Source: a virus
Lineage: Duplodnaviria > Caudoviricetes
IMG/VR virus record: IMGVR_UViG_3300028888_000047
Coordinates: 1 to 64,000 of that record
Reading direction: 5' to 3' (one strand)
Length of the DNA stretch: 64,000 nucleotides
Below are positions 32,745 to 45,842 of this stretch, one piece after another; within the stretch, counting starts at the first letter, position 1; each line of letters begins with the position of its first letter. Below the pieces are notes generated by a model, which had not been told where the DNA came from, did not search any database, and saw nothing but the letters and a program-made list of their open reading frames with translations. The position numbers were made by a program, and so were the translations under genes.

Positions 32745-33221
32745 CAATTTAGCAAACGCATATAGGTAGTAGCGACTATCTATGTTTGCTATTTCAAGGA
32801 CAAAACCTTTTTTAAATGGGCGTTGCAAACGTAAGGGGAAGAGCGTTTGCAACGTTTTTTATTAACCCATTCAATTAACATTTATTAACTAAAATAATTT
32901 TGATATGTCATTTTTTATTATTATCTTTGAAGTGGGCAACCAGGAAAAGCTCGTGAGGAGGCGTTGGTGAACTGTAAATAGTTCGAATGTTAATTAAATG
33001 TTAAAGTGGTAATTTTATTTGTTTTTTAAAAAATAAATTATTATCTTTCAATCAAAGAAAATAAATAAGGAGATATTAATTATGGCATATAGAGATAAAA
33101 TAACGTTGCATATCTATTGGGATGATGGTGTCACTGTTGAATGCCGTTATTTTCCATCAAAGAAAGCTGCAAAGAAATATGCAAAAGACAATGGTTGCGT
33201 TGGTTATAAAATTGATTAAAT

Positions 33222-33999: not shown

Positions 34000-34308
34000 A
34001 TGAGTAAGGAAACAATTAAAATGAATCAAATCCGTATAACGCGGATAGGTCTTAAAGAAGTGCTCAATATGGCTGAGCAAGTGTCAAATTCGCATCGTCA
34101 CACCATTCGAGAGAATTGGAATAAGGAGGATGACAAGGATTGCCGTAAGGCGTTGTATAAGGCTCATAGAGGGCTTGCAAAGAGTCGCGCCATCGTTCGT
34201 GAATGCCAAGCTCAATTGCGTGCCACAAAACGCGAAATAAGAAGGCTTAATTACCTACACGATTTCCGCTTAAATGCCATCGCTGAGCATAGAAGCATTT
34301 TTGAATAA
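34000..34308 (+). CDS. Basic coiled-coil hypothetical protein
   Basis: 102-aa ORF. Confidence 0.7.
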   Translation: MSKETIKMNQIRITRIGLKEVLNMAEQVSNSHRHTIRENWNKEDDKDCRKALYKAHRGLAKSRAIVRECQAQLRATKREIRRLNYLHDFRLNAIAEHRSIFE

Positions 34309-34450
34309 AGTGTTAAAGAAATGTTAAAAATTGGATTTCATTTCTTTATCCAATTTTTTTCTTGTATATTTGCAATGTTGAAAGACAAAAAGATAACGAA
34401 TTAAGTCGCCAAGCGTCTGACCGCGTAAGTCTATATGCTTTCAACATCAT

Positions 34451-34529
34451 CGCTGAGAAGCTGAATATTGGCAAAAGCGCAAGGTGGTAAAACATCTTGA
34501 AACAATAGGTTCAAATCCTATCACAGCGG
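34451..34529 (+). ncRNA. tRNA-like RNA 1 (extended anticodon arm, TGGTAAA tip)
   Basis: CGCTGAG/CACAGCG acceptor, GCT/AGC D stem, ATAGG-TTCAAAT-CCTAT T arm. Confidence 0.6.
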
Positions 34530-34535
34530 CTTATT

Positions 34536-34638
34536 TGTGCTTTACCAAAGAAACGGAGGTAACTCTAGGACAAATGGGGCTTATGGTAAATAAGCTGATT
34601 CTACGGAATCTTCACAGGTTCGAATCCTGTAGGCACAA
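34536..34638 (+). ncRNA. tRNA-like RNA 2 (Tyr-GTA-like, expanded D loop, G33)
   Basis: TGTGCTT/AGGCACA; GCTTA-TGGTAAA-TAAGC; GATTC-TACG-GAATC variable arm; ACAGG/CCTGT T stem. Confidence 0.8.
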
Positions 34639-34644
34639 CTTATT

Positions 34645-34747
34645 TAGAGGATACCAAAGAAGTTGACGCAAGTCTAGGACAAATGGACCTCATGGTAAAT
34701 GAGGTGATTCTACGGAATCTTCAAGGGTTCGAATCCCTTTCCTCTAA
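34645..34747 (+). ncRNA. tRNA-like RNA 3 (paralogue of RNA 2)
   Basis: TAGAGGA/TCCTCTA; CCTCA-TGGTAAA-TGAGG; AAGGG/CCCTT; stems covary with RNA 2. Confidence 0.8.
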
Positions 34748-35128
34748 CAAAAAAACCATATTTAAAACCTCCTTTCTTGAGCGGTTGGCAACGGGTTCAC
34801 CCCCAATGCTGACCGCTTTTCTTGTATATATACATTTGCTGGCTTGCACCGTACAACGGTCTTCTGTGGCCTGGTTTTCCCACCACAAAGATAATCATTA
34901 TATTTTAAATTTCAAAATATATTTTGTTAAAAAAAATTAATTAAAAAAGATTTTTATTTTAAACTTTATTAACTAAAATAATTTGGTAGTGTGTAGTAAT
35001 ATTACTATCTTTGATGTGGGATTTCCAGGCATTCTATATACCACGAGCTGTTGTGCATACAAAAAAAAAAGAGTCAATAGCATTAAGCCATCAACCCTTT
35101 TTGAGTATAATATGAAAGAAGATTTTCT

Positions 35129-35305
35129 TTATTTTATTTCAAGAATTTGTGATACTTGCTCGTCGCCAATAACAAATTCGTTTGCATCAGCATCTTCCGC
35201 TTGCGCCCTTGCAGCATCAAGAGCGTCGCCCTCATTTCTAAACTCTCCTTCTACCACTGTTGTATAGGTGGCATTATAATTAAGTCTAATTGTATATTTT
35301 GCCAT
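35129..35305 (-). CDS. Small acidic protein (58 aa, MAKYTIRLNY...)
   Basis: Manual translation; last gene of the minus operon. Confidence 0.65.
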   Translation of the reverse strand: MAKYTIRLNYNATYTTVVEGEFRNEGDALDAARAQAEDADANEFVIGDEQVSQILEIK

Positions 35306-36647: not shown

Positions 36648-37033
36648 AATATAAAACCTTCTTTAATTATTTAACTGCGTGAAAGATAATAATAAAATAT
36701 GTAATAACCAAATTTTATTTCAACTTTAACATATTATTAACATTTAATGTATACCATATTATATTACATAATAAAATGAAGTTAAATATATTCTCCTCCA
36801 TATCAAGCTCAATTGAAAATCAATAAGTTACAACGCCGGATGTGAAATATCTGTTTTGCCCACTCCAAAGATAATAATAATTTACCAAATAACCAAATTA
36901 TTTTTTCACTTTAACATTTATTTAACACTTTATATACTATATGTTAAAGTTATGTTAAATGCTGATATTTATTTGTTTTTTTTAAAATAAAATGTTATCT
37001 TTGCAAACGAAATAAATAATAATGTATTTAAAT

Positions 37034-45431: not shown

Positions 45432-45842
45432 TCATAGTTTTATTGCCATTGTATAATACATTGAAAAGCCATTTTTAGGGCATATTTCATAAAACCCCTC
45501 AGATTCGTAGAACGCTTTCAGTTGTTGGTTTGACATTTCTCCAAGTGAACTAACCTCAAGTAACAATATGCAGTTTGTGAAGTATTTCTTGATGTATTGT
45601 AGCATTTGCCTACCATAGCCCATTCTTCTCATATTACTATTTGTACCAAAACTAGTCAAATGGAACACTGGAACTTGTGGATGCCCTAGTTCTTCACGTA
45701 TCCACTTAGGCATATCTGAAATTAACTTAGCATATATACTACATATGCGTTTGTTAGAGTCAGGGGTAAATCCCAAATCATCATCATATGTATTAAAACT
45801 CAGATAATTCAAACTGTATTCTTTTACCTTTATTATTGTCAT
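45432..45842 (-). CDS. GNAT acetyltransferase
   Basis: RRMGYG acetyl-CoA motif; FYESEGF. Confidence 0.8.
   Translation of the reverse strand: MTIIKVKEYSLNYLSFNTYDDDLGFTPDSNKRICSIYAKLISDMPKWIREELGHPQVPVFHLTSFGTNSNMRRMGYGRQMLQYIKKYFTNCILLLEVSSLGEMSNQQLKAFYESEGFYEICPKNGFSMYYTMAIKL

Follow-up and report, generated by a model that had tools for sequence, protein, structure and literature searches.

The window, that is, the whole stretch of DNA analysed here, comprises the first 64 kb of a 317,464-bp viral record with 32% GC. The proteins encoded in the window are phage-like (a UvrD/Dda-type helicase, an RlaP nucleotidyltransferase, GP88 and SprT) and the record holds hundreds of small ORFs, and we therefore interpret it as a jumbo phage. 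Its genes do not use Shine-Dalgarno (SD) sequences (GGAG is found at −20 to −3 in 2.8% of the 390 ORFs of ≥75 codons, compared to 2.7% in the background) and TAnnTTTG is enriched twofold upstream of the phage ORFs, which together point to a likely host among the Bacteroidota. A search for Ribosomal_S21 gave no match, indicating that a bS21 gene is absent from the phage genome.

The feature under study lies in a 750-bp gene-free stretch between the end of a plus-strand gene at 34308 and minus-strand gene ends at 35129. The 102-aa protein encoded upstream has no relatives in viral contigs, and the locus found no match among GenBank phages by blastn. The stretch holds a plus-strand operon in which a Bacteroidota-type −7 promoter box read in the sequence, TATATTTG (34365-34372), is preceded by the phage's AAATGTTAAA upstream element and followed by a leader and then by three tandem tRNA-like units (34451-34747; unit 1 at ~34451-34529, unit 2 at 34536-34638 and unit 3 at 34645-34747). 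The TTTTTTTCTTGTATATTTGCAnTGTTGAAAA sequence at this promoter is identical in the window and in the relative L008 and recurs in L012, L016, L023, L032, L033 and L047. Upstream of the cassette promoters (34311-34330, 32990-33005, 36745-36760 and 36915-36930) lies a recurring AAATGTTAAAG / GTGTTAAAG element, which was also seen in L012, L016, L033 and L047 and is probably an upstream promoter element specific to the phage. Between the upstream gene and the operon promoter, a hairpin (AAAAATTGGAT...ATCCAATTTTT, 34326-34358) bordered on each side by A-runs and T-runs would terminate transcription in both directions and could also end a minus-strand transcript that crosses the array.

The tRNA-like units make up a direct repeat of 109 nt; they have GGTTCGAATCC T-arms, and their acceptor ends are paired. 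ARAGORN called no tRNA in the units and Rfam gave them a weak tRNA match only (E=1); the Rfam search of the locus returned nothing relevant at gathering or E-value thresholds, and an alpha_tmRNA match on the minus strand (17.8 bits) was discarded, as it covers the model's ends only. The units are cloverleaves of type II whose D region contains a GNRA hairpin as an insert, and their 'anticodon' stem closes a GGUAA pentaloop in which positions 32/38 covary (U-A, C-G). Such units are widespread among the metagenome contigs of relatives, where arrays of 2-4 share a single conserved promoter; in L027, L034 and L037, lone units are embedded among ordinary tRNA genes.

Downstream of unit 3, a linker (34748-34755, plus strand; 3-11 nt in relatives and variable in sequence) leads to the block described below, which is followed directly by the intrinsic terminator of the operon (34779-34824, plus strand), consisting of a 12-bp stem, an inner 3-bp stem and then TTTTCTT. 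The terminator hairpin (34779-34818) has a predicted energy of −23.1 kcal/mol (z −4.15), and its structure is kept in all relatives while the sequences differ; the U·G pairs of its stem on the plus strand would be A·C mismatches on the minus strand. Because the operon elements lie upstream and the terminator hairpin directly downstream, we assign the block to the 3′ trailer of this operon, which is non-coding.

A copy of the 16S rRNA 3′ tail in the operon trailer

Read on the plus strand, the trailer consists of CCAT (34756-34759), ATTTAAA (34760-34766), ACCTCCTTTCT (34767-34777) and an extra T (34778), and the reverse complement of this region reads AAGAAAGGAGGT-TTTAAAT-ATGG. The block itself (34767-34778) thus repeats the 16S rRNA 3′ tail when read on the plus strand, and its minus strand reads as an extended SD of 11 nt, AAGAAAGGAGGT. 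The 16S rDNA of seven Bacteroidales genomes ends in GGCTGGAACACCTCCTTTCT, followed by GG or AG; these ends were found with the pattern GGAWCACC, which gives the tail AACACCTCCTTTCT, and a pattern containing GGATCACC matched no Bacteroidales. The 11-mer of the phage is identical to the last 11 nt of this tail. The original prediction of an anti-SD sequence in the trailer RNA, with a CAT at the distance that separates SD and AUG, was therefore borne out (34756-34777), as was its placement of the block in the transcribed trailer of the tRNA-like array: promoter, three units and block are followed by a terminator hairpin with a T-run.

The sequence AGAAAGGAGGT occurs once in the 317,464-bp genome, both strands included, compared to 0.16 occurrences expected from base composition. 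Similarly, AAAGGAGG-N6-9-ATG occurs at only three sites in the phage genome: the block locus, one intragenic site and a GNAT gene (45432-45842). The last of these, on the minus strand, encodes a 136-aa acetyltransferase behind AAAGGAGG-N7-ATG (−12 kcal/mol with the 16S tail); no other phage gene has a strong SD. Acetylation of ribosomal proteins, bS18 among them, is known from Rim-type GNATs, and a link between the phage GNAT and the anti-SD pocket is conceivable by analogy.

Conservation of the block in related loci

Relatives were retrieved with an anchor pattern from inside the tRNA-like unit, so that retrieval was independent of the trailer. The anchor recovered one viral contig of 401 kb as well as ~25 metagenome contigs in which two or three units lie in tandem, and the trailers of 19 distinct loci from relatives in metagenomes were compared. 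A 17-mer from the tRNA-like unit, tried as anchor in viral contigs, gave only chance matches within coding sequence (L001-L007), and a looser block pattern was uninformative, returning 107 generic SD starts and the known relative only from viral contigs.

As judged by mean pairwise identity in these trailers, the 12-mer is the most conserved segment (0.98, 16 sequences of the main clades), followed by CAT plus spacer (0.84), the T-arm and acceptor of the tRNA-like unit (0.78), the terminator hairpin (0.47), the linker to the last tRNA-like unit (0.40) and the sequence beyond the terminator (0.36). The main clade carries ACCTCCTTTCT, which matches the 16S tail at 11/11 positions and whose complement forms a predicted duplex of −17.5 kcal/mol with the tail. 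In two other clades the block differs: AACAaCTCCTTTCT in L024/L039 matches at 13/14 positions (−16.6 kcal/mol, predicted) and ACACCTCCTTT in L041/L043/L048 at 11/11 (−18.2 kcal/mol, predicted). The predicted duplex of L012 reaches only −11.4 kcal/mol. The register of the match differs among the three clades and yet the matches are kept, which argues that the relation to the 16S tail itself is selected. We therefore consider that the conserved block is, as far as these comparisons tell, a module selected for complementarity or identity to the host 16S 3′ tail.

The ATG on the minus strand (34757-34759; CAT on the plus strand) is invariant in 16/19 distinct relatives. All 16 of these loci, which fall into four sub-clades, keep it with 6-7 nt to the 12-mer and 7-8 nt to GGAGG, while the L041/L043/L048 clade is without CAT/ATG and has TTG at 7 nt instead. 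The original prediction had the complement end in ATGG; the ATG stands in these 16 relatives, whereas the G at +4 is not invariant (ATGA in L022 and L030). The A/U-rich spacer between ATG and block (34760-34766) is constant in length (6-7 nt) and drifts in sequence, with the variants ATTTAAA, ATTTAAT, ATTAAT, AATATAT, ATACAAC and ATTAAA and with differences at 3/7 positions in L022 and L024.

Behind the ATG, the window has a 12-codon mini-ORF on the minus strand, MVFLLEERDSNP* (34721-34759), which runs antisense into the T-arm of unit 3, is not conserved and is called as a gene in none of the other assemblies. In the relatives the ORF has 3-47 codons and uses three frames relative to the antisense T-arm (GFEP, DSNL, IRTS). 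Since length and frame of the ORF vary behind a fixed ATG, initiation appears to be conserved and not the product. Accordingly, that ATG 34759 starts a real small protein gene is barely credible in spite of a strong SD at ideal spacing, since the peptide (3-47 aa, three frames) has nothing conserved beyond M-V, overlaps a structured tRNA-like unit and is skipped by gene callers.

Wherever it occurs, the block is found inside the tRNA-like operon, with 0-4 nt (in rare cases up to 25 nt) between it and the terminator on its 3′ side; the tRNA-like arrays of L013 and L016 are without it. In local folds of the relatives the 11-mer is fully unpaired on the plus strand in 17/19 cases and on the minus strand in 9/19. 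The element includes a start codon and has no promoter-terminator pair of its own.

Predicted convergent promoters flank the cassettes

Facing the block is a predicted convergent promoter on the minus strand, P1(−) (34870-34893), composed of TATCTTTG (34893-34886) and then GTGGTGGGAAAACCAGG. Its transcript is predicted to start near 34880 and would reach the SD after ~100 nt. In 18/19 relatives, a predicted TATCTTTG-N2-GTGGG promoter occupies the same position opposite the block; L033 keeps the block and lacks the convergent promoter, and L013 has the promoter and lacks the block. In the phage, 14 copies of TATCTTTG-N2-GTGGG(A/C) in both orientations lie between 16402 and 36873, with none elsewhere in the 317-kb genome, and some copies precede genes. 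The TATCTTTG copies bracket each cassette and point inward, for example after the terminators of tRNA-Lys (24548) and tRNA-Leu (30359); the plus-oriented copies share GTGAGGAGGCGT and the minus-oriented ones share GGGAAAAC..GGATAC.

A second convergent-promoter unit (35006-35125) has the same layout, with a hairpin, a conserved ATG block and, in relatives, the mini-ORF MKED*. Its conserved trailer block, TTGAGTATAATATGAAAGAAGATT (35101-35125), lies between the stop of a 58-aa minus-strand gene and the terminator of that gene; the plus strand, downstream of the P1 promoter at 35006, presents this block as an A-rich leader with an ATG, and the ORF behind this ATG is MKED* in L008 and L033 and 52 aa long in the window. 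Neither a site similar to the 35101-35125 block nor a trans target for it was found elsewhere in the phage.

Search for antisense targets of the trailer

In line with the original prediction, Bacteroidota use SD sequences on very few genes, as reported previously (PMC9976891) and as seen at the Bacteroidales starts that we sampled. It had further proposed that the plus-strand RNA is a guide targeting SD-led mRNAs, and this part found no backing, as no target complementary beyond the SD core was detected in 185,579 species genomes or in the phage. In these genomes the 23-nt complement had one exact match, in a Lachnospiraceae MAG and not in Bacteroidota. The complement form with a 7-nt spacer had 19 matches, mostly ordinary Firmicutes starts, of which the sole one in Bacteroidaceae, before a lipoprotein-like ORF, is within chance expectation; the form with an 8-nt spacer had one match, and no specific host target emerged. 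Within the phage genome, the best other site for the 25-mer differs at 5/25 positions.

Among candidate host genes, the starts of Bacteroidales rpsU and rpsR agree only at the SD core and ATG(G), the rpsR spacers matching at 4/8 positions, which is chance level. GGAGG-N7-9-ATG(G) precedes rpsR in 15/30 Bacteroidales genomes sampled, and extended SDs are found on a minority of Bacteroidales rpsU genes. Across 61 Bacteroidales genomes, GAAAGGAGGT-N5-8-ATG occurs 47 times, compared to 25 times for the reversed control. We also observed that rnfG-like (FMN_bind) and rnfE/A-like (Rnf-Nqr) genes in rnf operons carry 10-nt SDs, GAAAGGAGGT (L252, L257 and L278, in G003, G060 and G008, respectively). 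Two further candidates were rejected: relatives do not conserve a pairing in cis between the block and the D-loop insert of unit 2 (AAGAAACGGAGGT), and P1(+) leaders (GAGGAGGCGT) form only 6-7 bp with the trailer.

Possible functions of the block

Ribosomes of Bacteroidia (Flavobacterium johnsoniae) hide their anti-SD in a pocket formed by bS21, bS18 and bS6 (PMC7797042). The rpsU gene carries an extended SD, which forms 9-13 bp at below −13 kcal/mol (PMC13000457, PMC9976891). Only an extended SD is read, preferentially by ribosomes that lack bS21 (PMC9976891), and on wild-type ribosomes the extended helix displaces bS21, as seen in cryo-EM structures (PMC13000457).

At the sequence level, the plus- and minus-strand readings of the block are mirror images. 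We tentatively prefer the minus strand, at slightly less than even confidence: an rpsU-type extended SD with an AUG mini-ORF, carried by a convergent transcript, would capture the sequestered anti-SD. The transcript from the convergent promoter at ~34893 would run antisense through the terminator hairpin and expose AAGAAAGGAGGU, a 7-8-nt A/U-rich spacer and an AUG, which together would make an extended SD start site of the type that Bacteroidia keep for rpsU. The phage RNA would then bind 30S/70S particles so that the AUG occupies the P site, and the ribosome would be released after a short, meaningless ORF. In such a scheme the minus-strand RNA would not be a protein gene; it would serve as a decoy, as a site that strips bS21 or as a sensor that only ribosomes with a free anti-SD can read. 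From sequence complementarity we infer all further steps, namely minus-strand transcription, ribosome binding and the consequences for bS21.

Several observations are consistent with an extended SD on the minus strand. The geometry set by the ATG distance is kept, the spacer is free to vary and the product is unconserved, which suggests a site selected for ribosome binding; since the phage does not otherwise use SDs, the block would not be an ordinary start site. The alternative raised in the original prediction, a minus-strand start at ATG 34759, has accordingly become somewhat more likely, CAT and distance being kept while the spacer drifts, whereas the functional peptide that it implied has not, the ORF being unconserved. 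The 11-bp duplex, at −16.6 to −18.2 kcal/mol across the three clades, falls inside the published rpsU range. Moreover, the TATCTTTG-GTGGG class also precedes real genes and the second unit (35006-35125) repeats the layout.

Other observations weigh against the extended-SD reading. Promoters of the same class follow the tRNA-Lys and tRNA-Leu cassettes, and the presence of a promoter is therefore not specific to the block. The minus-strand RNA would be fully complementary to the transcript of the tRNA-like operon and, as no minus-strand terminator follows the SD, would be without a defined 3′ end. In addition, the SD is fully unpaired in only 9/19 folds, the L033 block has no promoter and the L041 clade has no ATG. 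Finally, a phage that lacks both a bS21 gene and SDs on its own genes would gain no obvious advantage from stripping bS21.

We consider it less likely, though a serious alternative, that the plus strand acts instead. Here, processing of the tRNA-like units would release a ~75-nt trailer RNA, made up of the single-stranded AACCAUAUUUAAAACCUCCUUUCUU and the terminator hairpin, that acts in trans, either by pairing with host extended-SD mRNAs (rpsU, rpsR, rnf) and blocking their translation or by binding the bS21/platform pocket as a mimic of the tail. The position of the block, always inside the tRNA-like operon and 5′ of the terminator and nowhere else in the genome, agrees with this, as does L033, which keeps the block without a convergent promoter. 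The 11-mer is fully unpaired in 17/19 plus-strand folds, and a single-stranded 11-mer just 5′ of a terminator gives the trailer an sRNA-like anatomy; 3′-end-derived sRNAs such as 3′ETS-leuZ and CpxQ are usually built from a seed with a terminator behind it. Possible Bacteroidales targets exist in SD-led rpsR (15/30), some rpsU genes and rnfG/rnfE. None of them, however, is complementary beyond the SD core: the 23-mer occurs once in the 185,579 genomes and not at all in the phage, the rpsR spacers match at chance level, and the three base pairs of the CAT, across an unpaired 7-nt loop, would add almost nothing to an RNA-RNA duplex. As for binding of the pocket, the anti-SD mimic of OLE RNA binds bS21 (PMC12054373), but its copy is paired with an SD-like strand and the phage copy is unpaired.

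Improbable, in our view, is a reading that involves both strands, with the trailer and the convergent transcript as a sense-antisense pair whose 16S-tail elements neutralise each other, forming a timing switch between the early cassette promoter and the convergent promoter. Convergent promoters do flank every cassette of the 16-37 kb region, the two transcripts would be perfectly complementary over >100 nt and most folds, whichever the strand, leave the block accessible; nevertheless, we infer such a switch from layout alone, and it is unnecessary for explaining the conservation.

We think it just as improbable that the likeness to the 16S tail is incidental and that the pyrimidine block serves termination, 3′ processing of the tRNA-like units or protein binding. 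That the block abuts the terminator fits such a role, as do the L013 and L016 arrays without a block. It is difficult to reconcile, however, with the 11-14-nt tail matches that three clades keep in different registers and with the other terminators of the phage, which are without any such block; a chance match of the 11-mer is expected ~0.16 times per genome, its conservation not yet counted.

Comparison with known systems

Whichever strand acts, we give about equal weight to belief and doubt in the more general proposal that phages of SD-blind Bacteroidota direct an RNA device of their own against the sequestered 16S 3′ tail, be it an extended-SD mini-ORF that strips bS21 or a free copy of the tail that silences SD-led genes or titrates bS21. 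A rare signal found in at least 19 distinct loci, with no protein behind it and in an SD-less genome, suggests that viruses exploit or attack this hidden channel. To our knowledge, the only established use of the Bacteroidota anti-SD so far is bS21 autoregulation via a single host extended-SD gene, and our literature search found no paper on a phage-encoded orphan extended SD or 16S tail copy. If the proposal is true, the phage would reprogram ribosome specificity with RNA alone and without a bS21 of its own, which bears on why Bacteroidota keep a perfect anti-SD that their ribosomes hide. The RNA concerned is short and defined (25 nt plus hairpin) and suited to existing F. johnsoniae and Bacteroides ribosome assays.

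The plus-strand trailer can be compared with sRNAs derived from tRNA 3′ trailers or 3′UTRs, such as 3′ETS-leuZ and CpxQ of E. coli, with which it shares a conserved single-stranded stretch, here between the 3′ end of a tRNA-like unit and the operon terminator. Unlike these sRNAs, it has no complementary partner that we could find, and its seed is a copy of the rRNA tail and not antisense to an sRNA or mRNA. The anti-SD mimic of OLE RNA is likewise a non-ribosomal RNA with an exact copy of the anti-SD of its species (PMC12054373). The OLE copy, however, is 6 nt long, paired with an SD-like strand and part of a 600-nt Bacillota RNP, whereas the phage copy is 11-12 nt long and unpaired, and belongs to a phage whose hosts are SD-blind. 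Bacteroidota phages that encode bS21 (PMC9723584) are similar in being large phages that seemingly act on the bS21/anti-SD system, and differ in the bS21 gene, which is absent here.

The block can also be compared with the extended SD of rpsU itself. In contrast to rpsU, the block is phage-encoded and antisense to a tRNA-like operon, is followed by neither bS21 nor a conserved ORF, and in one clade is without the AUG; its match is to the very 3′ end of the tail (ACCUCCUUUCU), and only two sub-clades continue it towards GAUCACC/AACACC. Leading bS21 or another conserved ORF is what defines the rpsU type, and we have therefore not filed the block as a member. The two nonetheless share a helix of comparable length (11 bp here, within the 9-13 range), a start codon ~8 nt after GGAGG and a lineage that is otherwise SD-less (PMC7797042, PMC9976891, PMC13000457), and the phage block, like that of rpsU, would be expected to pull the anti-SD from the bS21/bS18/bS6 pocket.
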